A stretch of 64,000 nucleotides of DNA from Patescibacteria group bacterium (GCA_018063105.1 JAGOQX010000001.1:8551-72550); one strand, 5' to 3'. Shown: positions 7,867 to 58,009, counted from the first letter of the stretch. Notes: generated by a model not told the origin, from the sequence alone. Numbers and translations are program-made.

Positions 7867-8850
7867 ATGAAATCACGGCTACCTAATACATCACCAACAT
7901 ACATGTTCATCCTCCCACCTGATGCGCTGGTCAACATCCTTCGTTGCTCTTTCTGCAAAGCATCCTTAGAACACACACAGACTGCCTGGAGATGCCAAAG
8001 CTGCGCAATGGTCTTTCCAAATTCACCCATACACGTTGGAACGCATGAAGAATTAACGATCGACTTCAGTATTTCGAAACGACCCTATTGCTTAACGGAA
8101 TCTGAAAAAATTTGGAAAGAAGAACAGGAACGGTACGAAGAACGAAGTAGGACGCATCACAATATTCTTCCTATCCAAGAATACCTCAATGAAATCAATG
8201 GCGTGAAAGAAATCTATACACGCGAGTTTCATCTTGAAGGCGCAGTGCTTGATGTGGGTGGTCATCAGGGCAGACTGAGACATTTTTTAGATGAGCAGAC
8301 AAGCCTATACGTCTCTATCGATCCGTATAAACAGACATTCTCTAATATTGAGTCGCTCACTCCTCTTCTCGAGGCGTACCCCGTATTAAAGCAGCCTTGC
8401 TATTTTGTCGTCGGCGTCGCCGAACGTCTCCCGTTTGCAAGTCAATCGTTTGATTGGGTTCACATGAGATCCGTCCTTGATCATTTTGAAGATCCATATC
8501 TTGCGCTAAAAGAAGCGTACAGAGTGTTAAAACCGGGTGGAAAAATCCTCATCGGATTAGCCATTGTTGAGAAGTTGCACCGTACAGAACAGAACACATC
8601 ACTCCTTCAACGAATCAGAACGAATGTCCAAAAAAATGGAATCAGCGGCCTCTTCCGAACGGTAATACAAAAAATGAGAGATCGCGTCTTCCATCATCAC
8701 ACGCAGCATCATCACGTCTTTCGTTTTTCTCACGCACAGCTCACCGAAATGCTTCAGGATGCCGGCTTCAGCGTCCACCATGAACATTGGCAGAAACCAC
8801 CGACCGACTTCTGTCTCTATCTAGACGCGATAAAACAAACGAACAAATAA
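7867..8850 (+). CDS. Class I SAM-dependent methyltransferase with N-terminal zinc ribbon
   Basis: 327-aa ORF. CSFC...CQSC zinc ribbon. SAM motif I VLDVGGHQG and post-I/II region VLKPGGKILIG. Confidence 0.7.
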   Translation: MKSRLPNTSPTYMFILPPDALVNILRCSFCKASLEHTQTAWRCQSCAMVFPNSPIHVGTHEELTIDFSISKRPYCLTESEKIWKEEQERYEERSRTHHNILPIQEYLNEINGVKEIYTREFHLEGAVLDVGGHQGRLRHFLDEQTSLYVSIDPYKQTFSNIESLTPLLEAYPVLKQPCYFVVGVAERLPFASQSFDWVHMRSVLDHFEDPYLALKEAYRVLKPGGKILIGLAIVEKLHRTEQNTSLLQRIRTNVQKNGISGLFRTVIQKMRDRVFHHHTQHHHVFRFSHAQLTEMLQDAGFSVHHEHWQKPPTDFCLYLDAIKQTNK

Positions 8851-9171: not shown

Positions 9172-9987
9172 ATGGAAACCGTCATTCGACCAAAAAAGAC
9201 GATAAGCCTCGAAGATTTCAAAGAGATCTGGCGCTATAAAGAGCTCCTCTATTTCTTCACATGGCGCGATCTTAAGGTCCGATACAAACAAACGGCTATC
9301 GGCGTTCTCTGGGCAATCTTCCAACCTTTCATGACGATGGTCGTTTTTACGATGTTCTTTGGGAATCTCCTAAAGGTTCCATCCGATGGGGTTCCCTATC
9401 CAATTTTTGTGTATATCGGACTTCTCTTCTGGCAATTCTTTTCTAGCGCACTTTCGGATACGAGTAATGTGCTCATTTCAAATCAAGCAATTATTACAAA
9501 AGTTTATTTTCCAAGACTTATTCTTCCATTTTCATCGGTAGCAACAAAACTCATCGATTTTGCAATCGCGTCAATCATTCTCATTGGAATGATGGTATAT
9601 TACGGCTATACTCCGCGTCCTGTTGGCATCCTCATTCTCCCCGTCCTCATCAGTATTACTTTCATGGCATCAGTTGGTGGCGGATTGTTTCTCGCGGCTG
9701 TAAACGTAAAATATAGAGATGTTCGATATGTTCTTCCGTTTTTCATCCAGATCCTTCTCTTCGTCACACCGGTTATCTATCCGGCTGGTATCGTAGGCAG
9801 ATATTCATGGGTCCTCGCCCTGAATCCAATGATGGGGGTCATCCAAACTGCACGCGCTGCATTTCTAGGTACCGCGCCTATAAATTGGACGCTCCTCACG
9901 CTCTCCTCTGCTGCCAGTGCAATCCTGTTTGTTATTGGCATTATCTATTTCAAAAAAGTCGAGCGTTATTTCGCTGATATCATCTAA
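9172..9987 (+). CDS. wzm: ABC-2 type polysaccharide export permease (Wzm/TagG-like)
   Basis: 271-aa ORF. YKELLYFFTWRDLKVRYKQTAIGVLWAIFQPF signature followed by 6 TM helices. Confidence 0.9.
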   Translation: METVIRPKKTISLEDFKEIWRYKELLYFFTWRDLKVRYKQTAIGVLWAIFQPFMTMVVFTMFFGNLLKVPSDGVPYPIFVYIGLLFWQFFSSALSDTSNVLISNQAIITKVYFPRLILPFSSVATKLIDFAIASIILIGMMVYYGYTPRPVGILILPVLISITFMASVGGGLFLAAVNVKYRDVRYVLPFFIQILLFVTPVIYPAGIVGRYSWVLALNPMMGVIQTARAAFLGTAPINWTLLTLSSAASAILFVIGIIYFKKVERYFADII

Positions 9988-9993: not shown

Positions 9994-11268
9994 ATGGAAC
10001 CAATCATCGAAATCAAAGGTGTAGGAAAAAAATATAACATCACACATCAGCGTGGAGGATACATTGCGCTTCGCGATATCTTTGCGAATATTCTTCGAAA
10101 TCCATTTAAATTTGCAAAACAAAAAGCAAAACAAATAGTAGGACTTGAAACAAAAGAAGAGTTTTGGGCTCTTCGTAATATCAATCTCGAAATACAAAAA
10201 GGCGAGATCATTGGAATCATTGGCCACAACGGAGCTGGAAAATCAACACTTCTGAAAATTCTTTCAAGGATAACACCGCCAATAGAAGGAGAAATCATCA
10301 TGCGAGGCAAAGTCGCGTCGCTACTTGAAGTAGGAACTGGATTTCATCCAGAGTTGACAGGACGCGAAAATATTTTTCTGAACGGCGCAATTATCGGCAT
10401 GACGCAAAAAGAAATCGCGCGAAAATTTGATGAAATCGTCGCGTTCGCCGGAGTTGAAAAATTTCTTGATACGCCGGTCAAATACTATTCAAGCGGAATG
10501 TTTGTCCGACTCGCCTTTTCCGTTGCGGCACATATGGAACCGGACATTCTGATCATCGATGAAGTTCTTGCCGTCGGCGATGCGGAATTTCAAAAAAAAT
10601 GCTTGGGAAAAATGGAAGAAGTGACAAAAGCAGAAGGAAGAACAATTTTATTTGTCAGTCATAATATTGGAGCCATCCAACAATTATGTAAAAAATGCGC
10701 ACTACTGGAACATGGCAAGCTAAAAAGCTTTGGTCCGACCGAACAAATCGTCGCCGAATATCTTGGTAGCAACAAAACACTCGGCGCAACTTCAAGTATT
10801 CTCAATAATCAACATCTCAAGGGAACGCGTGAAGCTACTATCACGGAAGTGGGCATTAGCAATAAGGAGATTAAAAAGAATGCGTTTCTCATCAATGAAC
10901 CCATTCAATTTGATATCAACTTCAACGTCCAACCGAACGCGCGTCCGCTTTCATTTTGGATCATATTCACGAATCAAGAAGGATCCAGAGTCTTAAACAC
11001 CTTTCAAAAAGATATCGAAAAACCGAATGCGTACACGCCAGGCCAGCATACGATACGTGTAACACTTAACGACATTGGCCTCATGCCTGGTAGATATACT
11101 GCTCTTATCGGTATCTTTGCACACGACATGGCTACAAAATTCGATTTCGCAGATTGGGTCGAACCAGCACAAGTCTTCGACATCGCACCAACGTTCTCCG
11201 ACGGCACTCCATTTGACGGCCGATGGGGAACTATGACAACGAAAGCCAATTGGAAAACAACCCTATGA
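9994..11268 (+). CDS. wzt: Polysaccharide export ABC ATPase with C-terminal substrate-binding extension (Wzt/TagH-like)
   Basis: 424-aa ORF. Walker A GHNGAGKST, signature YSSGMFVRLAFS and Walker B ILIIDEVLAVGD. An additional roughly 170-aa beta-rich C-terminal domain sits where the Wzt_C carbohydrate-binding module lies. Confidence 0.9.
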   Translation: MEPIIEIKGVGKKYNITHQRGGYIALRDIFANILRNPFKFAKQKAKQIVGLETKEEFWALRNINLEIQKGEIIGIIGHNGAGKSTLLKILSRITPPIEGEIIMRGKVASLLEVGTGFHPELTGRENIFLNGAIIGMTQKEIARKFDEIVAFAGVEKFLDTPVKYYSSGMFVRLAFSVAAHMEPDILIIDEVLAVGDAEFQKKCLGKMEEVTKAEGRTILFVSHNIGAIQQLCKKCALLEHGKLKSFGPTEQIVAEYLGSNKTLGATSSILNNQHLKGTREATITEVGISNKEIKKNAFLINEPIQFDINFNVQPNARPLSFWIIFTNQEGSRVLNTFQKDIEKPNAYTPGQHTIRVTLNDIGLMPGRYTALIGIFAHDMATKFDFADWVEPAQVFDIAPTFSDGTPFDGRWGTMTTKANWKTTL

Positions 11269-11825
11269 TACACTCACTTTCTCAAGGCGCTTTGATTTGG
11301 ATTACCGGACTCCCAGGTGCGGGAAAAACAACGACGGCAAAACATCTATACGAACTTGTAAAAGATCAAGTGCCTACCGTCTGTATCGATGGTGATGTTA
11401 TGCGTGAGCTTATGGGCGGAGACCTTGGATACACTGACAGTGACCGGCTCGCTAACGCATATCGTATTGCTCGACTATGTAAGCACTTGGTCGATCATCG
11501 TCTTCTTGTCATCTGTTCTACCGTCTCATTATATAAAGAAATTCATGAATGGATTCGCACGTACATTGCGATTACGACAATCGTCCTCATCGATGTAGAC
11601 TTCTCCACGCTCGTCCAGCGCGATCAAAAAGGAATGTACAGCCAAGCACTCGCTGGACAGCTCACAAACGTACGCGGAGTAAACCAGGCATATGACATTC
11701 CCGAGGCACCAGAATTTACCATACAGAATAACGGGAATATTGAAACGCTCTTCGCCCTCGCGCCGCAAATCATGGATACTGTTCTGCAGCGACTTCAGGT
11801 ACACACGGACTCACCGAGCGTATGA
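11265..11825 (+). CDS. APS-kinase-fold P-loop kinase; candidate cytidine diphosphoramidate kinase (Cj1415 type)
   Basis: Start moved to the ATG at 11265, an ATGA overlap with the wzt stop. 186 aa. WITGLPGAGKTT, IDGDVMRE..GDLGYTDSDR and RDQKGMYSQALAGQLTNVRGVNQAYDIPEAPE align motif-for-motif with CysC. No ATP sulfurylase is in the window. Confidence 0.75.
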   Translation: MIHSLSQGALIWITGLPGAGKTTTAKHLYELVKDQVPTVCIDGDVMRELMGGDLGYTDSDRLANAYRIARLCKHLVDHRLLVICSTVSLYKEIHEWIRTYIAITTIVLIDVDFSTLVQRDQKGMYSQALAGQLTNVRGVNQAYDIPEAPEFTIQNNGNIETLFALAPQIMDTVLQRLQVHTDSPSV

Positions 11826-14221
11826 TTATAAAAAATCCATCCTCTACCATTTCTTTTGGGAGTAAAGCGGAAACTCTGGAACGACTTCGCCCGCATCTCC
11901 ATTCTGCCGTGATAGATCCTCTCTATTTTTTTACCGTACAAGAATGGAACAACGATCGTGCATCCATTGTAAAAAAAATACACTCTTTTTTAGGCGACCA
12001 CCCGCTCGTTGTTCGTAGCAGCGCAATAGATGAAGACGGCCTGAACCAATCAAATGCGGGACACTACACCTCGACTCTTAATATCCCTGCACAAGATACT
12101 CAAAAACTTGAGTCTGCCGTTGATGCGACCATCACTTCTTATACGGACAATCGTGCGGACCACCAAGTGTTCGCGCAGCCTTTTCTCAATTCCGTTGAAA
12201 TGAGCGGGGTCATTTTTACACGTGACATCAATTCATTCGCTTCGTATGTCACCATTAACTACGATGATGAAAGCGGTCGAACAGATACGGTGACAAACGG
12301 ATCAAACAACCGATCTAAAACGTTTATCTTTCTTAAAGAACGCTGCTACGAACTCACTGATGAGCGATTCCGTCGTTTACTCGATGTCGTAGAAGAACTT
12401 GAACGGTTATTTGAAAATGATGCACTCGACATTGAATTTGCAGTTCGGAACAATGCGATTCATGTGCTCCAGGTGCGACCGATCGTACGCAAACATAATG
12501 CTATCGACGTACCAGATGCAACGCGCCTGCGTACAACACTTCAACAGATCTACGATCGAATAAAAGAACTAGCAACCCCTCACCCAGATCTATATGGCAA
12601 AGAAACGCTGTATGGCATTATGCCGGATTGGAATCCGGCAGAAATGATCGGAATCAAACCACGACCTCTCGCGCTCTCCCTGTATCGAGAGTTGATTACG
12701 GACAACGTTTGGGCGTATCAACGGGACAACTATGGCTATAAACGGCTGCGTAGTTTTCCGCTCCTTGTTTCATTCGCCGGTCATCCATATATCGATGTAC
12801 GAGTGGACTTCAATTCGTTCATTCCTAAAGCCATTCCAGACGAACTTTCGCATCGACTGACGGATTTTTATTTACAAAAATTACAAGCATCGCCTGCGAG
12901 TCACGACAAAATAGAATTTGACATCGTGTATTCCTGTTACACGTTTGATCTACCAAATAGAATGACCGAGCTTCTTCAGCACGGATTTACGACCGAGGAT
13001 ATCAATCTCATCACCAACTCCTTACGTCAACTCACACTCGGCATCATCGGGAACGACGATACTCCAGGTCTCTATACCACCGACCTCGAACGAATTCACA
13101 CGTTAGATGGAAGACGAGAGACACTCCTCGCCTCGCCTCTATCGGATATCAACAAAATTTACTGGCTTATTGAGGATTGCAAACGATATGGCACGCTCCC
13201 GTTCGCCGGTATCGCGCGAGCTGGCTTTGTCGCGATGTCTTTACTTCAATCAATGGTCACTTGCGGCATCCTCACCTCTGAGGAAAAACAACGTTTTCTC
13301 AATTCGTTACACACGATTACTCGACAACTGAATGTAGATACGCGTGCACTCAATGCCGAGCGCATGAGTCACCAAGAATTTCTCAAAAAATACGGCCATC
13401 TTCGTCCAGGTACGTATGACATCACACTCGGAAATTACTCCGAACAATTCGATACATACTTTCAACGCACACCGTCCACAACGACTAATACGAATGATCT
13501 GCATCCGCAAACCTTTCATCTGACCGACGTCCAGACAGGGGCCATCCGAATGCTTCTTGATGAACACAGCCTACCGATGAGTGTAGAGCATCTTTTTCAA
13601 TTCATCCGCGAAGCCATTGAGGGTCGTGAATACGCAAAATTTGCATTTACGAAAAACGTTTCCCAAGTCCTAACACTGATAAAGGGCTATGGAAAGCAAA
13701 TGAACTTAGATTCGGAACAACTATCCTTTACGGAAATTGGCACATTCCTGCGATTTTATTCGACAGTCGCATACTTTGATGAACAGGACGTCTTAACTGC
13801 GGAGATCGAACGGAACCAAAAAATGTATCACTTGTACAAAGTATTAAAACTTCCGCATCTCATCTGCAAGCCTGAAGATGTATTCGCCTTTCATGTTGGT
13901 ACAATGGAACCAAACTACATTACCCAGACAATCGCTGAAGGCGACATTCACGTTTTACGTTCAACCGATACGCCCGAAATGCTGCACGGAAAAATCACAT
14001 GCATTGAAAGTGCAGATCCAGGATTTGATTGGATCTTTTCCCACAACATCGCAGGGCTCATCACGACCTATGGTGGTGCTAATTCACATATGGCTATACG
14101 CGCCGCGGAACTCAATATTCCAGCAGTGATCGGTTGCGGCCCACTCCTATTCGAACAGTGGAGCCACGAGCGGCGTATACGTCTTGACGCAGCAACACGA
14201 CGCGTTATTCCTCTTCTATGA
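11822..14221 (+). CDS. PEP-utilising/PPDK-like three-domain enzyme; candidate L-glutamine kinase (Cj1418 type)
   Basis: 799-aa ORF. N-terminal PPDK_N/ATP-grasp motif LVVRSSAIDEDGLNQSNAGHYTS. C-terminal phosphohistidine swivel domain ITTYGGANSHMAIRAAELNIPAVIGCG. ATGA overlap with the upstream gene. Confidence 0.7.
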   Translation: MIIKNPSSTISFGSKAETLERLRPHLHSAVIDPLYFFTVQEWNNDRASIVKKIHSFLGDHPLVVRSSAIDEDGLNQSNAGHYTSTLNIPAQDTQKLESAVDATITSYTDNRADHQVFAQPFLNSVEMSGVIFTRDINSFASYVTINYDDESGRTDTVTNGSNNRSKTFIFLKERCYELTDERFRRLLDVVEELERLFENDALDIEFAVRNNAIHVLQVRPIVRKHNAIDVPDATRLRTTLQQIYDRIKELATPHPDLYGKETLYGIMPDWNPAEMIGIKPRPLALSLYRELITDNVWAYQRDNYGYKRLRSFPLLVSFAGHPYIDVRVDFNSFIPKAIPDELSHRLTDFYLQKLQASPASHDKIEFDIVYSCYTFDLPNRMTELLQHGFTTEDINLITNSLRQLTLGIIGNDDTPGLYTTDLERIHTLDGRRETLLASPLSDINKIYWLIEDCKRYGTLPFAGIARAGFVAMSLLQSMVTCGILTSEEKQRFLNSLHTITRQLNVDTRALNAERMSHQEFLKKYGHLRPGTYDITLGNYSEQFDTYFQRTPSTTTNTNDLHPQTFHLTDVQTGAIRMLLDEHSLPMSVEHLFQFIREAIEGREYAKFAFTKNVSQVLTLIKGYGKQMNLDSEQLSFTEIGTFLRFYSTVAYFDEQDVLTAEIERNQKMYHLYKVLKLPHLICKPEDVFAFHVGTMEPNYITQTIAEGDIHVLRSTDTPEMLHGKITCIESADPGFDWIFSHNIAGLITTYGGANSHMAIRAAELNIPAVIGCGPLLFEQWSHERRIRLDAATRRVIPLL

Positions 14222-15006
14222 ACGCTATCATTCTCGCGGCAGGCATGGGTACACGACTCGGCGCATACACCGCCGATCGTCCAAAATGCACCTTGTTATT
14301 CAAGGGCAAGCAACTAATCGAGCATCAGGTGGATACCCTGCGTCGCGCTGGTATTACAGATATTACAATCGTGCGAGGCTATCATTCAGAATGCATACAA
14401 ATTCCGGGAGTTCGATACGTTCAAAATGATGATTTCATGAATACGAACATGGTTGAAACACTCTTCTGTGCAGAATCTGAAATCAAAGGCGACACACTTA
14501 TTGCTTACGCAGACATTCTCTACGAACCACGCGTCATCGCGGCGATTCAAGCGAGCACCGTCGACATCGGCGTTACCGTCGATACGGATTACTGGACCTA
14601 TTGGTCAGCTCGACTCGATCATCCGGAGCAAGACACGGAAAGTCTCGTTGTGAACGATCAAGGGACGATTATCGAATTAGGCGATTCAAGCTGTCCGTCA
14701 GAAAAAGCGCGCATTCGATATGTCGGACTCATCAAACTATCTCAAAAAGGTGCTGAAGCGCTCAAGCGCGTCTATCATGAAAACAGCATCGCTCACAGCA
14801 ATTCAAACGAGCCATGGAAACGGTCCAAATGCTTCCGCAAGGCGTATATGACCTGTTTATTACAAGCGGTGATCGATTCTGGTTTTCCCGTTCATCCCAT
14901 CGAAATTCAACACGGATGGATTGAATTCGACACTGTTGAAGATTACGAACGCGCCGCAAAGTGGGACGCGGAAGGCAATCTGGATCGCTTTATCCACCTC
15001 ACATAA
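14218..15006 (+). CDS. LicC-like nucleotidyltransferase; candidate CTP:phosphoglutamine cytidylyltransferase (Cj1416 type)
   Basis: 262-aa ORF. MNAIILAAGMGTRLG...DRPKCTL NTP-transferase signature. ATGA overlap with the upstream gene. Confidence 0.7.
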   Translation: MNAIILAAGMGTRLGAYTADRPKCTLLFKGKQLIEHQVDTLRRAGITDITIVRGYHSECIQIPGVRYVQNDDFMNTNMVETLFCAESEIKGDTLIAYADILYEPRVIAAIQASTVDIGVTVDTDYWTYWSARLDHPEQDTESLVVNDQGTIIELGDSSCPSEKARIRYVGLIKLSQKGAEALKRVYHENSIAHSNSNEPWKRSKCFRKAYMTCLLQAVIDSGFPVHPIEIQHGWIEFDTVEDYERAAKWDAEGNLDRFIHLT

Positions 15007-15008
15007 CT

Positions 15009-15677
15009 ATGCGTATTGCCATTTCACAACGCTCGATCACGCATGAGCAGGGCGCGCGCCTGGATGCTCTTGAGCAAGACTACATCCGCTATTATCAAAC
15101 GTTCGGGTACACGCTCATTCCCATCCCGAATGTCCTCAATGATCCAGATTCCTACCTGTCATCCATTGGCATTCAAGGCATTATTCTGAGCGGCGGAGGC
15201 GACGTTCATCCATCGCTCTATGGTCATCCGGCAGCATCAACTGGATCCTACATGCCGGAACGCGATCGAACGGAACGCCTGCTCGTACAATACGCCATCG
15301 ATCATGCAATACCTCTCTTTGGCGAGTGCCGTGGCGCCCAATTCCTCAATGTATTTTTTGGTGGATCCCTCATCGAGGATCTGGTAGAGTACTTACCGCA
15401 TGCGATGAGCCATGTACAAACCCAACATATTGTGACATTCCACCCAAACGACCGGCTCCCCAATCTTCCGCCAGGGACAGAAACCAATTCGTACCATCGT
15501 CACGGCTTCACAGAAAAAGAACTCGCGCCAAACCTCCGCCCTTTTGCATCAACCGGTGACGGTGTCATCGAAGGCTTTATTCATGCCTCCATGCCGATCA
15601 TCGGAATCCAATGGCATCCGGAACGCGGCAAACCAGATGACAGCACCACATCACTCATCAAAACGCTTTTCAGATAG
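15009..15677 (+). CDS. Class I glutamine amidotransferase / peptidase C26-like hydrolase; candidate gamma-glutamyl-CDP-amidate hydrolase (Cj1417 type)
   Basis: Start moved to the ATG at 15009 (MRIAISQR), 2 nt after the upstream stop. 222 aa. ILSGGGDV, nucleophile motif GECRGAQFLN, and IQWHPER with His/Glu. Confidence 0.7.
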   Translation: MRIAISQRSITHEQGARLDALEQDYIRYYQTFGYTLIPIPNVLNDPDSYLSSIGIQGIILSGGGDVHPSLYGHPAASTGSYMPERDRTERLLVQYAIDHAIPLFGECRGAQFLNVFFGGSLIEDLVEYLPHAMSHVQTQHIVTFHPNDRLPNLPPGTETNSYHRHGFTEKELAPNLRPFASTGDGVIEGFIHASMPIIGIQWHPERGKPDDSTTSLIKTLFR

Positions 15678-15704
15678 CATCTTTATTCCTCACTCTTCCT
15701 TCAT

Positions 15705-16493
15705 ATGTCAACCTCCTCAACCTCACAAGCAACAAAAGCCTGGGACTATACAGATCAAGCTGCCTACTACCGTTTCCGTCCGAACTACGCTGAAAAAGCG
15801 ATTGATGATGTATGCGCGTATGTCAATGCAAAAGCTGATCAGTTTGTGGTGGCAGACGTCGGCGCCGGAACAGGAAACTTAACGGTCATGCTCCTCGCTC
15901 GACAACTCCCGTGCATTGCAATAGAACCAAACGATGCCATGCGTACTATCGGCATTGAATCAACAAAAGAGTTTGAACATATTTCATGGCGCACCGGAAC
16001 CGGCGAACACACGACTCTCGATGACGCGTCCGTCGATTGGTTTGCCATGGGCTCATCGTTCAACACCACGGATCGTGAAGCAACACTGAAGGAGGCCCAT
16101 CGCGTTCTGAAGCCGGGTGGATATTTTAGCTGCATGTGGAACCATCGAGACCTTGAAGACCCAATCCAAAAACGCATTGAGGACATTATTCTTTCCATCG
16201 TTCCAACCTATCAACGCGGCACACGTCGCGAAGGACAAGCAGACATCATCCTTTCAAGCAAGCTATTCAATGACGTTCATTACATTGAGCAGCCACAACA
16301 AGTAGAACGAACGCTGGAAGAATATATGAACGGATGGAAGTCTGTGAAAAATATCTATTGGGATCACGAGACAGAACAAGGCAAACAAACATTTAAAGCC
16401 ATTGAAGACGCGGTCAAAAAAGAATTTGGACATCTTGATAAACTACATCTGACGTACGTCACCCGCATATGGACCGCACGCGTCCAAAAATAG
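15705..16493 (+). CDS. Class I SAM-dependent methyltransferase (Cj1419/Cj1420-like position)
   Basis: 262-aa ORF. Motif I VADVGAGTGNLT and VLKPGGYFSCMW. Confidence 0.75.
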   Translation: MSTSSTSQATKAWDYTDQAAYYRFRPNYAEKAIDDVCAYVNAKADQFVVADVGAGTGNLTVMLLARQLPCIAIEPNDAMRTIGIESTKEFEHISWRTGTGEHTTLDDASVDWFAMGSSFNTTDREATLKEAHRVLKPGGYFSCMWNHRDLEDPIQKRIEDIILSIVPTYQRGTRREGQADIILSSKLFNDVHYIEQPQQVERTLEEYMNGWKSVKNIYWDHETEQGKQTFKAIEDAVKKEFGHLDKLHLTYVTRIWTARVQK

Positions 16494-17473
16494 ATCCAAC
16501 TCATCGAGAAACAGCTCTCCTTGCCTCCTCCCAATTCCCATCGGGAGTAGCTTGGCTTCTCAATTTCTTCGTCGAATTAGACGTCCTTATCTATCGCGGA
16601 AACAGTCCGGAAAAAACATGGCTCTATGATTCGAACAACCGCACCTATCGTGTAACCGAGGGTGATCAGATACTAAAGCAATGGATTCCCGCGCTCACCG
16701 ATCAACCGGACCGAACATTTGCCGAATCTCTTTGCATTCGATGGAGTCATGAGTTCCCAAACTCTACCAACGTACAACAAAAAGTGATCCTCATGATGCG
16801 AGATGGACGAGATGCAGTATATTCTCAATATAAACGCGAACATGCTGCCGATAGGGCACTTCAGGATATGTTGCGGATGCACTACGCACCGCTCGACCTA
16901 CCTCCAGCTGAAACATGGGCTACCCACGCGTACCTGTGGCTTCAACGTATTCCGAAGGATCGACTTCATATCATTCGGTTCGAAGACATCAAGACCGATC
17001 CTCTTCCGGAAGTAAAACGACTCCTCGCCTTTCTGGGGATGCAACGATCAGATGAAGATCTCCAGCGAGCAATCACCAGCTCAAGCTTTGAACGTGCAAA
17101 ACAAGCGGAAACTGCCTATCGAGCACAACAGACACAAACGCAATTCGCAGAAGTGAACCGTAAAGGACAACCGGGCGAATGGAAGACGAATTATACACCA
17201 GAAACACTGCGATTTTTCACCGGATTTCCACTATACATTCTCAATACATTCGGGTACGAAACGGATGCATCGACTACGTGTACCGACGCATGCTGTCGCC
17301 TCTTACTCAAGATCAAAAAAGCTCAGGTCGTCTCTCGCTGGTTTATGCGAGTAAACCTTCGCAGTGTCACACAACGGTTCATGCAACAAGTAATAAATAC
17401 AATCAAAAGCCTTCTCCCAAAACAAGTACGGATAGTTACTAAAAAATTAAAACAAAATGTCACCAACAGTTGA
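16469..17473 (+). CDS. Sulfotransferase-fold protein (Sulfotransfer_1-like)
   Basis: 334-aa ORF. 5'-PSB-like loop FPSGVAWLLN. 3'-PB-like MMRDGRDAVYS. IRFEDIKTDPLPEVKRLLAFLG. The C-terminal NRKGQPGEWKTNYTPE matches the RKGxxGDWKNxFT motif of PAPS-dependent sulfotransferases. Confidence 0.75.
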   Translation: MDRTRPKIDPTHRETALLASSQFPSGVAWLLNFFVELDVLIYRGNSPEKTWLYDSNNRTYRVTEGDQILKQWIPALTDQPDRTFAESLCIRWSHEFPNSTNVQQKVILMMRDGRDAVYSQYKREHAADRALQDMLRMHYAPLDLPPAETWATHAYLWLQRIPKDRLHIIRFEDIKTDPLPEVKRLLAFLGMQRSDEDLQRAITSSSFERAKQAETAYRAQQTQTQFAEVNRKGQPGEWKTNYTPETLRFFTGFPLYILNTFGYETDASTTCTDACCRLLLKIKKAQVVSRWFMRVNLRSVTQRFMQQVINTIKSLLPKQVRIVTKKLKQNVTNS

Positions 17474-17481
17474 TTCCACAT

Positions 17482-18381
17482 ATGACTACGGCTCTATCCA
17501 TAGACAATAGCGAGCAATTCGAGGCCTGTCCTCTTTGTGACTGCAAAGACCTCTATTTGGTTGGCACAATTTCCTATTCAGAGCCGCTCATCTTCGCGAC
17601 CACGCCTATCACGTTATCGCATAAACCGAGTTATCACCGTTGTCAGCAGTGCGGAAGCGGAATCGTTCAACAGACAATTCCCGAAGAAACCATGCGGACA
17701 TTGTATCAAGAGACCGAAGGGAACCGATGGTCCGCACCACCATTTACCCAAGAAAAGACACTTTCCCTTCGACGTGCATTCGATCGATTGCTAAAAACGG
17801 GGACGCGTCTGCTTGATATCGGCTGCAGCTCGGGTGAGTTATTGGATTATGCCGTTGATCGAGGCGCCGTCGTTGCGGGCGTTGAGCCGTCTACCTACTG
17901 TCGTCAGGAGTGCGAAACGAAGGGTCACCACGTCTATCGATCGATTGATGACATTCCCGATGACGTTACGTTTGACAGTATTACCGCGTTCGATCTCATC
18001 GAGCATCTACACGAACCCAAACATTTTCTTCAGAAGTGCTCGTCTCTGCTCCGTCCAAACGGGAGTCTTCTTATTCTGACAGGAAACCCAAACTGTCTTT
18101 CAGCTCGCCTAGCCAATCAACGGTGGTGGTACATCGGTTACCCTGAGCATGTCTTTTTTCCAACAAAAAAATCATTACAGCATCTCGCAGATTTTACGTT
18201 GGATTTCTACAATCCTGTCTATAATTCTCAAGCGTACCAAACACGATCTTGCTCGCAGTGGAATATTCAGGGTGCACGCAATGTGAAAGACACGGCGATT
18301 CGCTTACGCAAACAGAACTATACAGGCCTGCCACTTCTCGGTCCTGATCACGCACTCGTTCATCTCATGAAACGCATATGA
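17482..18381 (+). CDS. Class I SAM-dependent methyltransferase with N-terminal zinc ribbon
   Basis: ATG at 17482; the ORF track begins at a TTG at 17470. CPLCDC...CQQCGS. Motif I LLDIGCSSGELLD and LLRPNGSLLILTG. Confidence 0.7.
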   Translation: MTTALSIDNSEQFEACPLCDCKDLYLVGTISYSEPLIFATTPITLSHKPSYHRCQQCGSGIVQQTIPEETMRTLYQETEGNRWSAPPFTQEKTLSLRRAFDRLLKTGTRLLDIGCSSGELLDYAVDRGAVVAGVEPSTYCRQECETKGHHVYRSIDDIPDDVTFDSITAFDLIEHLHEPKHFLQKCSSLLRPNGSLLILTGNPNCLSARLANQRWWYIGYPEHVFFPTKKSLQHLADFTLDFYNPVYNSQAYQTRSCSQWNIQGARNVKDTAIRLRKQNYTGLPLLGPDHALVHLMKRI

Positions 18382-19160
18382 AACATATAATCCAACACTT
18401 TCTTTCCTTTGTCACTCGCTGTCTGTTAGGCATTCTGCGCGGTTTTGAAATACTGCGTCATAAAATCCTGCGAATACTTCGTACGATTGATATCTACCTA
18501 TCCGGGGAAGAGTGCCTCACACTCCGTGATTGCGCACTTCTCGTAAAACTTTGTGAACGTCAACCGCCCGGATCAGATCGATTTCTCGAATATCCCTGGA
18601 TGATTGAACACATCCCTCAACGAACACAACACCTATTAGACGTCGGTTCAACGATTGCTCCCATGCTGCGTGATTTGCTCCCTCAAACAATCAACATCTC
18701 GGCCATAGATTTTTCCGACAGAAAACAACCGTGCTCGGCCATACAGTACGTTCATGGCGATATCCGTCAGACGTCGTTTCACGATACGACGTTCGATTGT
18801 ATTACCTGTATTTCGACACTCGAACACATTGGTGTCGCTGGACGCTATGGCTGCGACAACGATCCGGATGGCGATCTGAAGGCGATGGTTGAGATGCACA
18901 GAATTCTACAACCAAACGGTACACTCCTTCTTACTGTTCCCTACGGAATTCGAGACGTCCTACCTATTAACAAGCTATACACTGAAGCCCGTTTACAGGC
19001 GTTGTTCGAAAACCGTTTTACAGTTACATCAATCACCTACAAAAAGTTCTCAACAAAATGGAAATACTGGTTCAGCGTGAGCGAGCAGGAAGCGGCAAAA
19101 ACAGATATGCTTCAAGATCGTTGGTATGCCATAGCGCTTATTGAACTCCAACGCGTATGA
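18378..19160 (+). CDS. DUF268-like SAM-dependent methyltransferase-fold protein
   Basis: 260-aa ORF. LLDVGST, then ISTLEHIGVAGRYGCDNDPDGDLKAMVEMHRILQPNGTLLLTVPYG, which resembles the DUF268 signature. ATGA overlap with the upstream gene. Confidence 0.55.
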   Translation: MKHIIQHFLSFVTRCLLGILRGFEILRHKILRILRTIDIYLSGEECLTLRDCALLVKLCERQPPGSDRFLEYPWMIEHIPQRTQHLLDVGSTIAPMLRDLLPQTINISAIDFSDRKQPCSAIQYVHGDIRQTSFHDTTFDCITCISTLEHIGVAGRYGCDNDPDGDLKAMVEMHRILQPNGTLLLTVPYGIRDVLPINKLYTEARLQALFENRFTVTSITYKKFSTKWKYWFSVSEQEAAKTDMLQDRWYAIALIELQRV

Positions 19161-21183: not shown

Positions 21184-22014
21184 ATGTCAATACAACATAG
21201 GGTCCAACATTTCCTCGATACACCGATAGGACAGATTCCAAAAAAACTTTTGGCAACGTTTTTTCCGAATTGGCTCCGTGACCCATTCCAAAAACTCAAG
21301 AGACTTCCAAGATTTACAACCGGTGAAACGGTTTTATTTTCAAAAAAAATCACCATCGCTGACGGACCGTCATTTGTATCGATGTATAAAGAGTTATTTG
21401 AACATGAGATCTATAAATTCTCTTCAAACACCGATCATCCCGTCATCATCGATTGCGGAGCGAATATCGGCCTAAGCGTCATATATTTTAAACGACTTTT
21501 CCCGGAAGCAAAGATTACGTGCTTTGAACCGGACCCGAGGATATTTAAAATATTGCAATCCAATATCGCTGCGTTCGGCCTCCGAGAGATTCATGCCGAG
21601 CAAAAGGCCGTTTTCAACAAAGAAATAGATCTTCAATTCTATGCCCAAGGTGGCGACGGTGGACGATTGGCGAATAGTTCTGAAAATAACAAAACTATTA
21701 TCGTTTCGGCTGTCCGTCTACGCGAATACCTACACGAAAAAATTGATTTCTTGAAAATTGACATCGAGGGAGCCGAAGCAGAAGTTATCGAAGACTGCGC
21801 TGATCTGCTAGCCAATGTTGATAATCTATTCGTCGAATTTCATTCATTCGACGGCCAAGAGCAACATCTCGACACGATCTTACGTGCCATACACAACGCG
21901 GGGATGCGCTACTATATTCATCCGATCGGGATTCAATCTGCTCACCCCTTTTATGAAAAAAAGACCTACGAGGGATCGGATATGCAGCTCAACATTTTCG
22001 CTTGCAGGAAATAA
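21184..22014 (+). CDS. FkbM-family methyltransferase
   Basis: 276-aa ORF. VIIDCGANIGLSVIYF and DFLKIDIEGAEAEV are signatures of the FkbM family. Confidence 0.8.
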   Translation: MSIQHRVQHFLDTPIGQIPKKLLATFFPNWLRDPFQKLKRLPRFTTGETVLFSKKITIADGPSFVSMYKELFEHEIYKFSSNTDHPVIIDCGANIGLSVIYFKRLFPEAKITCFEPDPRIFKILQSNIAAFGLREIHAEQKAVFNKEIDLQFYAQGGDGGRLANSSENNKTIIVSAVRLREYLHEKIDFLKIDIEGAEAEVIEDCADLLANVDNLFVEFHSFDGQEQHLDTILRAIHNAGMRYYIHPIGIQSAHPFYEKKTYEGSDMQLNIFACRK

Positions 22015-25004: not shown

Positions 25005-25967
25005 ATGACCCCTCACGTCAGTGTCGTCATGGCCGTGCGGAACGGACACAAGACACTTAAAGAAGCACTCGACAGCATTCTGGAACAAACCTTCCAGGAT
25101 TTCGAGTTCATCATTATTGATGACGCATCTGACGATGCAACGGGTGCGATTCTTCGACAACGGAACGACCCTCGAATCATCCGAATACGCAACAACACAA
25201 ATCTCGGACTTGCCGCATCGCTCAACGAAGGAATTCGACGCGCAAAGGGAGAGTACATCGCCAGAATGGACGGAGACGATGTTGCCCCTCCGAATCGTTT
25301 TGCAATCCAAGTCGCTTTTTTGGACGCGCATCCTGCCATCGGAATTCTCGGATCAAGCGCACGACTCATTGGGAAGACTGGCCAACGAAAGGGTCGATAC
25401 ACAGCCATGCCAACGCATACGCTGATCAAATGGCGTTCGCTCTTTGGTTCACCGATGATCCATCCGTCGATCATGGCGCGTCGTTCAATCCTCCTCGCAA
25501 ATCCCTACGACGAAACCTATCGAAACTCACAGGATTTTGAACTCTGGAGTCGTTTACTATTCGGGTCAACCGTTCAATTCGCGAACCTCAAAAAACCGCT
25601 TCTCTTGTATCGCGTCCATCAAGATTCAACTTCCTCAAAACGAACGGTCGAACAAAAAGAATTGAGCATGCAAACCATGTTCAACAACATGGCACGGTAT
25701 ACAGACCTTTCTGATCAAGAAGTACAAGCACTTCGGACAATCCGTCTCGGAGAACAGATCACCGGTCGCATAGAAAAGATCATCTTCGGTCTGTATCGTC
25801 GTCTCGCAACTTCCTTCATCTCTCGTGAACCGGTGACGTTCAAAGAACGATTCGCAATCTATCGATTTCTCATTCAATCAAAGTGGTTCATCTGGAAAAC
25901 TCGAATCCGTTCAATGCTTAACCTCGCAGAACTGCTCCCCGTTCATAATCGCACGACCAAGAAATAA
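25005..25967 (+). CDS. GT2-family glycosyltransferase
   Basis: 320-aa ORF. VSVVMAVRNGHKTLKEALDSILEQTFQDFEFIIIDDASDD and ARMDGDD. Confidence 0.85.
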   Translation: MTPHVSVVMAVRNGHKTLKEALDSILEQTFQDFEFIIIDDASDDATGAILRQRNDPRIIRIRNNTNLGLAASLNEGIRRAKGEYIARMDGDDVAPPNRFAIQVAFLDAHPAIGILGSSARLIGKTGQRKGRYTAMPTHTLIKWRSLFGSPMIHPSIMARRSILLANPYDETYRNSQDFELWSRLLFGSTVQFANLKKPLLLYRVHQDSTSSKRTVEQKELSMQTMFNNMARYTDLSDQEVQALRTIRLGEQITGRIEKIIFGLYRRLATSFISREPVTFKERFAIYRFLIQSKWFIWKTRIRSMLNLAELLPVHNRTTKK

Positions 25968-27689
25968 CAACGCATATGCCAACGATGGATATTCTGTCAT
26001 AATTCGTTCAGCTCCATACGACCGCATCGTCACAGGCAATAATTTTCGTTCATCAAGGTATTGGATTGATGCACGCGTCACCTCTCGCAATGCGGGAGTA
26101 GATTGAAACCAGTTTCCAGGCAAACCAAATCCTGCTTTTTTTCGATACACCAACTCCGTCGGCAAATAATCCGCAAGGATCCCTTTTAAAAACGATTTCA
26201 AGACGCCACCCTTCAGATGCTCTGATTCGAATTCCGATGCACTCGCAATAACATCCTGATCCAGTAACGGTACACGTCCTTCGATAGACGCGTATGACGT
26301 TGCAAGATCAATCTTGCGAAGTAAATCGTTCTCTAAATATGCAACGAAATCAAAATCGATCGGTCGAACTCCAGTGCCTGCTAGATACGCTTTCGCAACG
26401 CTCCATGACGAAACCGGACACAGACTTCCGGCCGGTGAAAGTTGTGATAGATAAAATGACACCGGCCTTCGCATGATCTTCATGCATGTCATTATGAGAC
26501 GTTGCGTCCAAGCTCCTCTCGGCGGAGATAAAAACAAACGATCCAACGCTCCGATTTTCGCATCAAGCACCGACATGCCGGACAATGGAATATGCCGATG
26601 ATATCCACGAAATAGCTCATCTCCTCCTTCGCCCGACAATACAACTTTCACATCACGAGACGCACGTTCGGCCAAGAAAAACGTTGGGAAAATGGAACTA
26701 TCAAAAATAGGTTCATCAATACGACACAGGACGCGTTCCAACACCCGCTCTAGTTCAGCTGATCCAAAATCGATGACCGTACAGTCTAACTTCAAACGTT
26801 CATTAATTGCACGAAAATATTTTTCATCGCGTTGGTCATTCGGGAATCGTACGCTATACGTTCGAAGATGCTTGTTATTTGAATGAAGAACAGCTGCGAT
26901 CAACGAACTGTCCGTCCCGCCTGAAAAAAAGACACCAACCGGCACATCTGAAACAAGATGCGACAGAATTGAACGCTCCAAAAGCCCCTTAAACGCCTCA
27001 CGTGATTGTATTTGTTCGGAGACAAATGAGGCCTGTTCATTTCGAATCACCTGTTTCGCCTGAAGATCAAACTCCAATACATGACCGGGCTCAAGCATGA
27101 ATACATCCTCATACAACGTTTGTGGCGTCGGTATATACCCCAATGCCAAATACAATTCTATCGCAGAACGGTCAAGAGATGGTACTAGCTTTTCCTTTGC
27201 GAGTAATTGAAGCACTCCTTTTACTTCTGATGCAAAAAATATTCTACCATCACGCACGGAATAATACAGCGGTTTTATTCCTGCTCGATCCCGAAAAAGA
27301 AAAACCTTTTGTGCATCACAATCTTCGATCGCAAAAGCAAACATTCCATGAAGATGTTCCGTCAACTTTGTCCCCCACTCGCGATATGCAGCCAAAATCA
27401 CCTCAGTGTCCGATTCTGTTCGAAACGGATGGTGCAATTCCAGTTGACCTCTAATTTCGCGATAATTATAAATCTCACCATTAAACGTAATGCGAAGTCG
27501 CCCCGTTACATCCTCCATCGGTTGCGCAGACCTCTGATCAACGTCAATAATCGAGAGACGGGCATGGCCAAGCGTCACCAATCCGTCGGACGATATCCCT
27601 TCACCATCCGGACCACGATAGGCAATCAACCGCAACGCAGAACGAACTGCTTCCGGTGAGTCACCCGTGCAACCAACGATTCCGCACAT
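25911..27689 (-). CDS. Asparagine synthase (glutamine-hydrolysing)-like amidotransferase, paralog 1
   Basis: Start trimmed to MCGIVGC, because the Ntn Cys must be residue 2. 592 aa. SGGTDSS PP-loop. The 3' end overlaps the convergent GT2 gene by 57 nt. Confidence 0.85.
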   Translation of the reverse strand: MCGIVGCTGDSPEAVRSALRLIAYRGPDGEGISSDGLVTLGHARLSIIDVDQRSAQPMEDVTGRLRITFNGEIYNYREIRGQLELHHPFRTESDTEVILAAYREWGTKLTEHLHGMFAFAIEDCDAQKVFLFRDRAGIKPLYYSVRDGRIFFASEVKGVLQLLAKEKLVPSLDRSAIELYLALGYIPTPQTLYEDVFMLEPGHVLEFDLQAKQVIRNEQASFVSEQIQSREAFKGLLERSILSHLVSDVPVGVFFSGGTDSSLIAAVLHSNNKHLRTYSVRFPNDQRDEKYFRAINERLKLDCTVIDFGSAELERVLERVLCRIDEPIFDSSIFPTFFLAERASRDVKVVLSGEGGDELFRGYHRHIPLSGMSVLDAKIGALDRLFLSPPRGAWTQRLIMTCMKIMRRPVSFYLSQLSPAGSLCPVSSWSVAKAYLAGTGVRPIDFDFVAYLENDLLRKIDLATSYASIEGRVPLLDQDVIASASEFESEHLKGGVLKSFLKGILADYLPTELVYRKKAGFGLPGNWFQSTPALREVTRASIQYLDERKLLPVTMRSYGAERIMTEYPSLAYALLFLGRAIMNGEQFCEVKH

Positions 27690-27690
27690 A

Positions 27691-28380
27691 CTATTTCGTC
27701 GAGCTCGATACCATTTCTGTGTAATGTACTTCAAACAAAAAATTGTACGCGAACATTGACGGCGCAATCGAGGCGAGTTTTCGAAACGGTGGGCGGGTAT
27801 ACCCTTCGAGAACCAACGTCACCGGCGTTTGTGTGAACGTTAATACCCATTTTAAATGTTGAGCATTAAACTGGGTGATATGCGTCGGATCTTCCAGGGG
27901 CGTACAGGCACGTTGACCAAGAAGATACCGGAATCGATGCTTCAAAAAAAACGCATTTGGCACGGTTCCAACGAAACGACCGCCTGGCTTTAGATGTTGA
28001 ATAATTTTGGATACCACGATCTCTGGTTGATATACGTGCTCCAAAACTTCACTGCACAAAATAACGTCGAACTTCCGATCTTCCAATTCAGACCAATCAC
28101 CCAAGAGATCCATGCCGAAAAAGGATCCACGGCCAACCGTGTGTTTTGCACGCTCTATCGCCGTTGGATCAATATCCACACCGACAAGATCGTCTACGCG
28201 ATCTACAAAATGCTTCGTGAGCGTTCCATCACGACACCCAAGATCCAGCCATACCCCACCCTTTGGCGTGTGTCGTATAATCCAATCCGCCCGTTCTTTC
28301 TCTAAAATAGAGAATCCAAGCCTTCCACGACTCTCGTGATGTGACTGATAAAGCTCTGCGAGATGTGAAGTATTGGACAT
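27691..28380 (-). CDS. Class I SAM-dependent methyltransferase
   Basis: 229-aa ORF. WLDLGCRDGTLT motif I, VILCSEVLEHV and LKPGGRFVGTVP. Confidence 0.75.
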   Translation of the reverse strand: MSNTSHLAELYQSHHESRGRLGFSILEKERADWIIRHTPKGGVWLDLGCRDGTLTKHFVDRVDDLVGVDIDPTAIERAKHTVGRGSFFGMDLLGDWSELEDRKFDVILCSEVLEHVYQPEIVVSKIIQHLKPGGRFVGTVPNAFFLKHRFRYLLGQRACTPLEDPTHITQFNAQHLKWVLTFTQTPVTLVLEGYTRPPFRKLASIAPSMFAYNFLFEVHYTEMVSSSTK

Positions 28381-30560: not shown

Positions 30561-31163
30561 CTATTTAATCAAAAACACAGAATAAAAATGTGTGTTTGAT
30601 TTTTTATTCGTCCGAAACAATGTATCAAGGGCATGGGCGAGCGCATCATGAACGGAGCGGAGACGTGTATACAGCGGAGAGAAGTGTGCAATCATCAAAA
30701 ACCAACCGCCATGTTTCTGAAGATGAATCTCGGAATAATCACGACAGATAAGTCGAAGCGTATCATCAAAAAACCTCCAATAATCCGGATACGCGCCCAC
30801 GCCGTGGCGCGCATGATACGAATAGATTGATGGAACCTGAATAAATACCATCCCTCCTGGTTTGAGAATACGGTGCATTTCACGAACTGCATCTGCCGGT
30901 CGTTCAACGTGCTCCAAAACAGAACGGCACATTATTCCATCAACCGACGCATCCGCCATTGGAATCGCGTGGATGTCTCCAACGATGTCTGGATGATAAT
31001 CGGCGGAAACATCTAGCGTCTTGTAATCGCATTCCGTGAACAGTGACTCGAACTTTTTCATCCCCTTCATAAACCGCGTCCCACCACCAACGTCAAGAAT
31101 CGTCTTACACGTTGACATGCGTTGCATGCATTTATTTTCAAATTTCTCAAATGGTCGCTGCAT
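30561..31163 (-). CDS. Class I SAM-dependent methyltransferase
   Basis: 200-aa ORF. ILDVGGGTRF motif I, IMCRSVLEHV and LKPGGMVFIQVP. Confidence 0.75.
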   Translation of the reverse strand: MQRPFEKFENKCMQRMSTCKTILDVGGGTRFMKGMKKFESLFTECDYKTLDVSADYHPDIVGDIHAIPMADASVDGIMCRSVLEHVERPADAVREMHRILKPGGMVFIQVPSIYSYHARHGVGAYPDYWRFFDDTLRLICRDYSEIHLQKHGGWFLMIAHFSPLYTRLRSVHDALAHALDTLFRTNKKSNTHFYSVFLIK

Positions 31164-32272: not shown

Positions 32273-33091
32273 TTACATCCAACGACGAATATTCTCTTTC
32301 AACGTTTTTGGCAATTGAAGTCCCGCATGGCTCGCGGTGCTACTGACCCATTTTCCCATTCGAATCAATCCGACGCGAATCGCGCTTGAAACAGCATACA
32401 TCGTCCGCTGAACAGTCGGCATCGGACGATCAGACGGGATATGAACTGAACCACGAACGATTTCGAACTTCCCCATCTTCAATCCTGTGACGATCGAACT
32501 GACTGGGCGAGGCGACGCCTGCGCCCCTACAGACTCTATATCAAGATGAATCCGTGGACCGCCCCAATGCGACGCTCGGTGAAGATCTAACCCGGCGGAT
32601 GCGAGCAGCTTCGGCAACTTCCGTCGCAGAAATGACAGATACGAAACGGCAGCCGTCCGCGGAACGTGTTTGCCGTCGTATTGCCCATTCCAAATTTCGA
32701 TACCATCTAGCACAGCGAGATGCGCATCCTGGATTTCAAATTGATTTCGATGTGGATGCGCCAACACGATCCACGCTCCGTCTGCTTTCGCTTTTTTCAT
32801 CATCTCAATCGGTATCCCGATCTGTACGGGCGATGAGACACCAATCGCGAGCGTATGAGAATTCCCGCTGGTGATTTCAAAACCCGGGATAAACGACACT
32901 CGATCATCGCTCACACTTCGACATTCATCGATAAACTTTTGCATCTTCTCTTCATCCATTCCTTCCGTGTGCTCGGTCATACAAACAAATGAGATCCCAT
33001 CACGTACCGCAAGATCGCGGATTTCAGATAGCGAAAGTTTCCCATCGTAGGAATGAGTTGAATGGAGATGAACAAGTCCAATGAGCTTCAT
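32273..33091 (-). CDS. PHP-domain metal-dependent phosphoesterase
   Basis: 272-aa ORF. VHLHSTHSYDGKLSLSEIRDLAVRDGISFVCMTEHTE and ...LAHPHR His clusters typical of the PHP fold. Confidence 0.7.
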   Translation of the reverse strand: MKLIGLVHLHSTHSYDGKLSLSEIRDLAVRDGISFVCMTEHTEGMDEEKMQKFIDECRSVSDDRVSFIPGFEITSGNSHTLAIGVSSPVQIGIPIEMMKKAKADGAWIVLAHPHRNQFEIQDAHLAVLDGIEIWNGQYDGKHVPRTAAVSYLSFLRRKLPKLLASAGLDLHRASHWGGPRIHLDIESVGAQASPRPVSSIVTGLKMGKFEIVRGSVHIPSDRPMPTVQRTMYAVSSAIRVGLIRMGKWVSSTASHAGLQLPKTLKENIRRWM

Positions 33092-55037: not shown

Positions 55038-55047
55038 AACAACGAAA

Positions 55048-57915: not shown

Positions 57916-58009
57916 ACGTTGACGTGTGGAAGTATAGCATACGAACGAGGCCCTCTCACTCTCCACAAAATCCCCGTATCCTGATATAGTTCAAACCACC
58001 ATTATCCTC

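Follow-up and report, generated by a model that had tools for sequence, protein, structure and literature searches.

Sugar phosphoramidates have been described as rare, and the only genus in which O-methyl phosphoramidate (MeOPN) has been demonstrated is Campylobacter, with effects there on phage recognition, serum resistance and vaccine design (PMC3907429, PMC6429109). In C. jejuni, the enzymes Cj1415–Cj1418 make cytidine diphosphate (CDP)-phosphoramidate 3'-phosphate, called 'the likely donor' by Raushel and co-workers (PMC11800397), and the transfer of the group to the sugar is a step that has yet to be resolved even there (PMC11800397, PMC12409886). Related genes were examined here in a 64-kb stretch of DNA (JAGOQX010000001.1:8551-72550), hereafter the window, in which coordinates are counted from the first letter. 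An earlier note, made from the sequence alone, had proposed that a MeOPN-type donor pathway is encoded at 11265–16493 within a glycan operon, and had guessed that the host was related to the candidate phyla radiation (CPR); the NCBI record names it as Patescibacteria group bacterium, in line with that guess.

The five genes at 11265–16493 and their junctions were found exactly as given in the note, both on re-reading and in the NCBI gene calls (MBP9863838–MBP9863843, on a 78.9-kb contig), which have identical starts. Together with the adjoining gene for a candidate transferase, they probably make up a phosphoramidate-donor module of the Cj1415–Cj1419 kind with transfer to a glycan, as judged from their sequences. 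The six genes are as follows.

11265–11825, + strand: Cj1415-type kinase with an adenosine phosphosulfate (APS)-kinase fold, 186 amino acids (aa); proposed cytidine diphosphoramidate 3'-kinase
11822–14221, + strand: Cj1418-type L-glutamine kinase, 799 aa; ATP-grasp N-terminal domain and phosphohistidine swivel domain
14218–15006, + strand: Cj1416-type CTP:phosphoglutamine cytidylyltransferase, 262 aa
15009–15677, + strand: candidate Cj1417-type gamma-glutamyl-CDP-amidate hydrolase, class I GATase/C26 fold, 222 aa
15705–16493, + strand: Cj1419-type S-adenosylmethionine (SAM) methyltransferase, 262 aa; proposed O-methylation of the phosphoramidate
16469–17473, + strand: sulfotransferase-fold protein (PF00685, 1.2e-22); proposed phosphoramidate (MeOPN) transferase

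Relatedness to the C. jejuni proteins

The C. jejuni locus L001 was retrieved with a published cj1416 primer (PMC3907429), and L002 (C. jejuni GP013) by a genome scan with an alignment of the glutamine-kinase C-terminal domain. When the whole window was searched, each C. jejuni protein matched solely its expected gene. The 799-aa protein shares 40% identity with Cj1418 over 798 aa (610 bits), the nucleotidyltransferase 34% with Cj1416 over 257 aa (full length, E = 1e-47), the kinase 38–39% with Cj1415 (E ~1e-33) and the hydrolase 27% with Cj1417 (E ~1e-16). The methyltransferase is 50% identical to Cj1419 over 248 aa (255 bits) and 34% to Cj1420, placing a methyltransferase of the predicted type after the donor genes. 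All expected counterparts were thus recovered with real C. jejuni proteins, the NCBIfam models were concordant in both directions, and homology, models, conserved motifs and synteny all support the MeOPN-type donor pathway that had been proposed. As had also been pointed out, the gene order (kinase, glutamine kinase, nucleotidyltransferase, hydrolase, methyltransferase) differs from the order 1418-1417-1416-1415 in C. jejuni.

Pfam scans agreed with the folds that had been assigned, giving APS_kinase (1e-33), PPDK_N with the PEP-utilizers mobile domain, NTP_transf_3, Peptidase_C26/GATase (4e-38) and Methyltransf_11, and the motifs quoted for two of the proteins were located as GGANSHMAIRAAE (containing His756), GECRG and WHPE. 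Structures of Cj1415–Cj1418 were not found in the PDB, where the only matches were generic APS kinases, LicC, C26 proteins and the swivel domains of phosphoenolpyruvate (PEP) synthases.

The 799-aa protein scored 964.6 bits over its full length against NF004508/PRK05849 (cut-off 501), which is likewise the best NCBIfam model for a fragment of Cj1418. All family members share GG.NSHMAIR..E without variation, and the histidine within it, His756, is aligned with His737 of the 779-aa Cj1418, in agreement with the swivel histidine picked out in the note. Taylor et al. 2018 are reported to have identified His737 as the phosphorylated residue of Cj1418. The name given by NCBI to the 799-aa protein is 'phosphoenolpyruvate synthase', and PPDK_N and PEP-utilizers domains are indeed common to it and PEP synthases. 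However, that it is a PEP synthase, or a rifampin-type antibiotic phosphotransferase, clustered with the other genes by coincidence is almost certainly wrong. The best PEP-synthase model (cut-off 883) reached no more than 67 bits, the score of the rifampin phosphotransferase model (cut-off 999) was 41 bits, and PEP synthases in the PDB match only residues 697–774, the swivel domain, whereas Cj1418 aligns over the full length. Both identities are effectively refuted by these results, and the outcome that would have refuted the note, grouping with one of the two families, was not obtained.

Many glutamine-kinase homologues are ~1,000 aa or more in length, up to 1,265 aa (for example L088:2802–6002, P0155, P0185 and P0278). 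These long forms carry an N-terminal extension of 200–470 aa, and the Pfam listing for the L088 protein consists of the two kinase domains only.

No dedicated NCBIfam model exists for the Cj1416-type cytidylyltransferase. The window nucleotidyltransferase and Cj1416 have the N-terminal motif AAGxGxRL...PKC in common, and the best sequence match in the PDB, LicC (1jyk, 3e-12), is far weaker than the match to Cj1416. For the hydrolase the best NCBIfam model is NF045546, 'gamma-glutamyl-CDP-amidate hydrolase', and as the score of 75 bits lies under the cut-off of 250, the protein is a distant member. Single-linkage clustering groups it with Cj1417, in a cluster present in 69 loci, and its GECRG and WHPE are aligned with GICRG and WHIE of Cj1417. 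The earlier assignment as the Cj1417 counterpart is in keeping with the fold and the Cys and His motifs, and is to be qualified by the distance of the relationship.

The kinase passed a single APS-kinase-type model, NF004041 (146.7 bits, cut-off 127), and no other model scores higher for Cj1415 (292.9 bits). The apsK models were not passed (TIGR00455, 115.9 bits against 138.7; NF002059, 119 against 244; NF003013, 103 against 163), and Cj1415 is likewise under the cut-off of TIGR00455. DGDxxRExxG, (S/T)T(I/V)S and RDQKG are common to the module-linked kinases, Cj1415 and that of the window among them, whereas E. coli CysC, the one bona fide CysC sequence used for comparison, has DGDNVRHGL, AFISP and RDPKG at these positions. 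In the window kinase DGDN has become DGDV, AFISP is CSTVS and FTGID is VRGVN; the Phe of FTGID is replaced in all module-linked kinases, in most of them by Val. These results set the kinase apart from bona fide CysC in the same way as Cj1415.

Pfam scans of 48 window open reading frames (ORFs), which included every ORF of at least 300 aa, identified no ATP sulfurylase and no CysD-type (PAPS_reduct) domain, bearing out the claim that the window lacks an ATP sulfurylase. A tblastn search of the window with E. coli CysD and CysN gave nothing save an echo of the GTPase domain in Der, and neither protein had a match in any of 90 related loci.

The sulfotransferase-fold neighbour and the proposed pathway

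The gene at 16469–17473, with its sulfotransferase domain, is not mentioned in the note. An AlphaFold model of the encoded protein (mean pLDDT 84.5) was compared using Foldseek, and the top matches were cytosolic sulfotransferases bound to 3'-phosphoadenosine 5'-phosphate (PAP) or 3'-phosphoadenosine 5'-phosphosulfate (PAPS), with a probability of 1.0 to SULT7A1, SULT2A1 and SULT1E1. The family retains His94 and the 3'-phosphate motif R111...S119, with H94, R111, S119, R231 and G233 invariant or nearly so, and NRKGxxGEWK (RKG at 231–233) is the retained form of the SULT motif RKGxxGDWK. The strand-loop-helix has the sequence FPSGVAW, TGSGVAW or EPSGATW, without the lysine of PKSGTTW, in the five aligned members that cover this region; a sixth begins downstream of the loop, the 5'-phosphosulfate-binding (PSB) loop. 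The 3'-phosphate, RKGxxGDWK and PKSGTTW motifs are known from sulfotransferase structures and literature.

Residues ~273–334 of the window protein are predicted, at lower confidence, to form two long basic helices, and the C-terminal tails of homologues vary widely in length (proteins of 245–522 aa). This tail may serve to bind a membrane or a partner, or as a spacer.

This subfamily is small, with 23 homologues found in the database search, eight of which are on contigs equal in size to those of glutamine-kinase matches. Four further homologues were examined: those on a contig of 603 kb, on a widespread Patescibacteria contig and on one from Peregrinibacteria, and a 32%-identical outlier. All four lie directly beside a complete module. 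Homologues also adjoin the module in L082, L083/84 and L085/86 and in L041 (Spirochaetes), L055 and L065, the latter loci including Sulfuricurvum and Bdellovibrionota, and every homologue on a long enough contig does so. A second sulfotransferase-like family, homologous to the first (hhalign probability 96%, E = 1.6e-9), adjoins the module in 11 further loci. An Acidobacteria-specific neighbour family (cluster 11) had no usable relation to sulfotransferases in hhalign (probability 0.6%).

It is likely from this association and the fold that the protein is a phosphoramidate transferase, for which 3'-phospho-CDP-amidate would serve as a PAPS-like donor. As such a reaction would leave a 3',5'-bisphosphonucleotide in need of clearance, a CysQ-like gene would be expected beside the module. 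A gene for a CysQ-like Inositol_P (PF00459) 3'-nucleotidase accompanies it in 17 of 79 loci (for example L017:11777–12592, L082:5998–6756, L085:10334–11092, L089:5997–6737 and L090:8193–9008), and the enzyme may clear 3',5'-bisphosphocytidine. In three Patescibacteria relatives the gene is located between the glutamine-kinase and cytidylyltransferase genes; none was found in the window's own cluster. Literature searches for phosphoramidate in Patescibacteria, or for diphosphoramidate with a sulfotransferase, returned nothing, and one for methyl phosphoramidate in other taxa gave no relevant paper.

The names given by NCBI to the kinase and the sulfotransferase-like protein would fit ordinary sulfation, in which a true APS kinase makes PAPS, the neighbouring sulfotransferase sulfates the glycan, and the PEP-utilising protein, cytidylyltransferase and hydrolase are unrelated to either. 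The APS_kinase match (1e-33), the 33% identity of the kinase to E. coli CysC, the PF00685 match (1e-22) and the PAPS-dependent enzymes among the structural matches favour this explanation. However, it is very improbable, as the kinase fails every APS-kinase model with a curated cut-off other than that of the Cj1415-type subfamily, and the replacements of the CysC motifs DGDN, FISP and FTGID are precisely those of Cj1415. Neither an ATP sulfurylase nor CysDN is encoded in the window, the 90 related loci lack CysD and CysN, and no catalytic lysine is present in the PSB loop of the sulfotransferase-like family. Moreover, the kinase and sulfotransferase-like genes co-occur across phyla with those for the glutamine kinase, cytidylyltransferase and hydrolase.

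In the phosphoramidate pathway, each chemical step of which is modelled on C. jejuni enzymology, the intermediates would be L-glutamine phosphate, CDP-L-glutamine, CDP-amidate and 3'-phospho-CDP-amidate, in that order. The cytidylyltransferase would couple the product of the glutamine kinase to CMP (from CTP) to give CDP-L-glutamine, from which the C26 hydrolase would cut off glutamate to leave cytidine diphosphoramidate. The APS-kinase-fold enzyme would then phosphorylate the 3'-OH to give 3'-phospho-CDP-amidate, a look-alike of PAPS. The Cj1419-type methyltransferase would add the O-methyl group, at whichever stage, and the sulfotransferase-fold protein would move the (methyl)phosphoramidate onto a sugar hydroxyl of the glycan, these two steps being proposed anew here from gene association and fold. 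The surrounding operon would direct assembly of the glycan itself in the cytoplasm, and Wzm/Wzt would then export it.

Several points weigh against this pathway. The window kinase is 30–33% identical to E. coli CysC, near the mean of 32% to other module kinases, so percent identity has no power to separate the two groups and the kinase assignment draws on hidden Markov model (HMM) cut-offs, motifs and context. The hydrolase, already under the NF045546 cut-off, matches a generic C26 protein in the PDB (3fij, 1.9e-28) better than it matches Cj1417. Trp29 of the sulfotransferase-like protein is kept, aligned with the SULT loop tryptophan, so that on sequence grounds the protein might use PAPS. 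A Cj1421 fragment had no match in the window, which thus has no homologue of Cj1421/Cj1422, for which a role as MeOPN transferases is genetically proven, and the hhalign link between their family and the sulfotransferase-like family is weak (13%, E = 0.0021; 60%, E = 9e-5 with a richer alignment). Finally, knockouts of Cj1419 and Cj1420 in C. jejuni brought no change in the capsule (PMC11800397), so the methylation role proposed for the window enzyme is one of analogy.

The Cj1421/Cj1422 family, which has a C-terminal DUF2972, was confined to Campylobacter and Helicobacter loci in the 79-locus sample. Upstream of DUF2972 (L002:93–1235, L014:3094–4863) its members have an SG-loop and 'LVRDPISxxKS', weakly aligned with the sulfotransferase-like family, and the sequences suggest that Cj1421/22 may contain a divergent sulfotransferase-like domain.

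A homologous module with a different product, for example an unmethylated phosphoramidate, a donor in which another amide replaces glutamine, or a group destined for a non-glycan acceptor, is unlikely. It would be in keeping with the identities of just 27–40% to the characterised enzymes, the score of the hydrolase under its equivalog cut-off, and a candidate transferase of another family than Cj1421/22; phosphoramidate without O-methyl is also known elsewhere (PMC3907429), having been reported on the lipopolysaccharide of Xanthomonas and Shewanella. However, the orthologue of Cj1419 is 50% identical and widely syntenic, the whole enzyme set is kept with its catalytic motifs conserved, and the module has wzt on one side and glycosyltransferase genes on the other. 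That the Cj1419-type methyltransferase is so strongly conserved with the other module genes provides a functional lead for Cj1419 and Cj1420. The sulfotransferase-fold proteins, at ~300 aa, are compact candidates with which to ask whether 3'-phospho-CDP-amidate is the donor and when methylation occurs.

Distribution of the module and its setting in the glycan operon

At least 587 glutamine-kinase loci were identified in GTDB species genomes, distributed over many phyla. The hosts include Campylobacter, many Helicobacter, Lachnospiraceae, Bacteroides, Acidobacteriota, Omnitrophota and Bdellovibrionota, and further Chlamydiales, Cloacimonadota, Pseudomonas sp. CAN1 and Methanoperedens (locus L024). 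An exhaustive search of 50%-identity representatives returned 1,606 relatives at E <= 1e-30, the best 150 of which all exceeded 547 bits and were nearly all full-length. More than 120 full-length homologues are 44–60% identical, with hosts that include Patescibacteria, Elusimicrobia, Omnitrophica, Nitrospina and Magnetococcus, and some homologues have already been named 'glutamine kinase' by JGI. The note's view of phosphoramidate glycan modification as rare was not borne out at the gene level, and occurrence of the module outside Campylobacter is in itself nothing unusual. As donor genes are present in hundreds of species from many phyla, ultra-small Patescibacteria among them, glycan decorations with a P-N bond are probably much commoner than chemistry has so far suggested.

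Synteny was assessed in the best 80 of these loci, with some neighbour-family counts made on 79, using a distance limit of 6 kb from the glutamine-kinase gene. The cytidylyltransferase gene was found within this distance in 69 of 80 loci, the hydrolase gene in 71, the kinase gene in 54 and a Cj1419-type methyltransferase gene in 53. Kinase, cytidylyltransferase and hydrolase genes were all present in 48 of 80, and many of the other loci are cut by contig ends. All Patescibacteria relatives examined have these three genes, and the loci L082–L086, L089 and L091 have the full set; synteny of the four-gene set in relatives is thus established. The commonest order is glutamine kinase, hydrolase, nucleotidyltransferase, as in C. 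jejuni, and the order seen in the window, from kinase to methyltransferase, recurs in Patescibacteria relatives.

On a metagenomic contig (L090:15850–19122), the whole module, including the sulfotransferase-like gene, is located beside genes for phage-type integrases and a DNA methylase. These neighbours hint that the cassette is horizontally mobile.

In the window the module lies between wzt and glycosyltransferase genes, and three further neighbours are as follows.

9172–9987, + strand: Wzm-type ABC-2 permease of a glycan exporter, part of the context (PF01061, 1.5e-15; NF050109 galactan exporter permease, 2.8e-22)
9994–11268, + strand: Wzt-type ATPase with a C-terminal Wzt_C carbohydrate-binding domain (ABC_tran, 5e-23; Wzt_C, 1.2e-12)
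17470–18381, + strand: Methyltransf_23 methyltransferase travelling with the cassette (PF13489, 7e-24)

The five-gene module is translationally coupled to wzt, the ATG of the kinase gene lying within an ATGA at 11265 that overlaps the wzt stop codon (11266–11268). ATGA overlaps are also present at 11822 and 14218, the starts of the glutamine-kinase and nucleotidyltransferase genes. The hydrolase gene starts after a 2-nt gap (15007–15008; TAA-CT-ATG at 15004–15011), and the start of the 16469–17473 gene overlaps the end of the methyltransferase gene. No obvious Shine-Dalgarno sequence was seen within 20 bases 5' of the start codons of the coupled genes (for example 11245–11264). The Methyltransf_23 gene directly follows the sulfotransferase-like gene in L082 and L089 too, and in L041 a copy with 40% identity comes after the cytidylyltransferase gene.

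The Pfam scans found that other window ORFs encode glycosyltransferases, methyltransferases, epimerases, a Wzy_C protein, an LCP ligase and housekeeping proteins; no tRNA or Rfam element was found in the window. Seven SAM methyltransferase genes, unusually many for a glycan locus, are present (7867–8850, 15705–16493, 17470–18381, 18378–19160, 21184–22014, 27691–28380 and 30561–31163), two of them encoding N-terminal Cys-rich, zinc-ribbon-like motifs, and the glycan is probably heavily methylated. Two genes for AsnB-type glutamine-dependent amidotransferases (25911–27767 and 36363–38234, − strand), an ATP-grasp gene (33088–34278) and a PHP-domain gene (32273–33091) suggest that the glycan contains amidated or otherwise modified sugar acids. 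Three large ORFs on the − strand had no Pfam match at E <= 1e-6 (41944–45882, 1,312 aa; 53247–55067, 606 aa; 55048–57966, 972 aa), and the latter two adjoin a gene for a TraG/HerA-like P-loop ATPase (50032–51936).

The C-terminal domain of the window Wzt is 38% identical to those of L082 and L089 (Patescibacteria) and 32% identical to that of L041 (Spirochaetes), all three module-linked. WbdD of E. coli O9a makes a methyl-phosphate cap at the chain end, which is recognised by the equivalent domain there (PMC3482155). A tentative and rather doubtful extension of the pathway is that the small, module-locked sulfotransferase-fold branch has been re-purposed as phosphoramidyl transferases that use 3'-phospho-CDP-(methyl)amidate in place of PAPS, and that the methyl phosphoramidate is a non-reducing-end cap that halts elongation of the chain and that the Wzt C-terminal domain recognises for export. 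The evidence for the cap consists of gene adjacency and the 32–38% identity of the Wzt C-terminal domains in the three loci. If true, this would be a P-N counterpart of the O9a cap, and CPR bacteria and many other phyla would commonly have wall glycans with P-N caps.

Comparison with described systems

The O9a system resembles the window in being dependent on an ABC (ATP-binding cassette) transporter whose Wzt has a C-terminal glycan-binding domain, and in having a small methylated phospho-group added, in the window by proposal, by enzymes encoded beside wzt (PMC3482155). However, no WbdD homologue is encoded in the window, the group would be a methyl phosphoramidate derived from a nucleotide donor, and its position at the chain end is hypothetical.

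Like the PAPS system, comprising CysC, sulfotransferases and CysQ, the window has an APS-kinase fold and a sulfotransferase fold with 3'-phosphate motifs and a catalytic His. A 3'-phosphorylated nucleotide would also serve as the donor in both, and a CysQ-like Inositol_P gene is present in many related loci. Unlike that system, the window has no ATP sulfurylase, no CysC signature motifs, no score above an apsK cut-off and no PSB-loop lysine, and the proposed donor is built on cytidine diphosphoramidate rather than adenosine phosphosulfate.

Borg elements of Methanoperedens are also reported to carry Cj1416–1418-like genes in a surface-glycan region outside Campylobacter (bioRxiv 10.1101/2024.11.05.622173). 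The Borg four-gene cluster differs in that it was identified by structure prediction only, with no kinase or sulfotransferase-like partner described, and in that its host belongs to another domain.

The closest described system is the C. jejuni MeOPN capsule locus, Cj1415–Cj1422, in which the same five protein families, the window hydrolase being a distant member, are likewise encoded in an ABC-transporter-dependent glycan locus; the glutamine-kinase His and the Cys and His motifs of the hydrolase are kept. The window module has one methyltransferase where C. jejuni has the Cj1419/Cj1420 pair, and the place of the transferases Cj1421/Cj1422 (DUF2972) is taken by the ~330-aa sulfotransferase-fold protein. 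The exporter is Wzm/Wzt with Wzt_C in the window and KpsMT in C. jejuni, and, unlike C. jejuni, the patescibacterial host presumably lacks an outer membrane and has a gene for an LCP-family ligase (58010–59479). The donor pathway in the window is best seen as a further case of a widely distributed module, and what is less ordinary is its pairing with a module-specific sulfotransferase-fold protein and Wzt.

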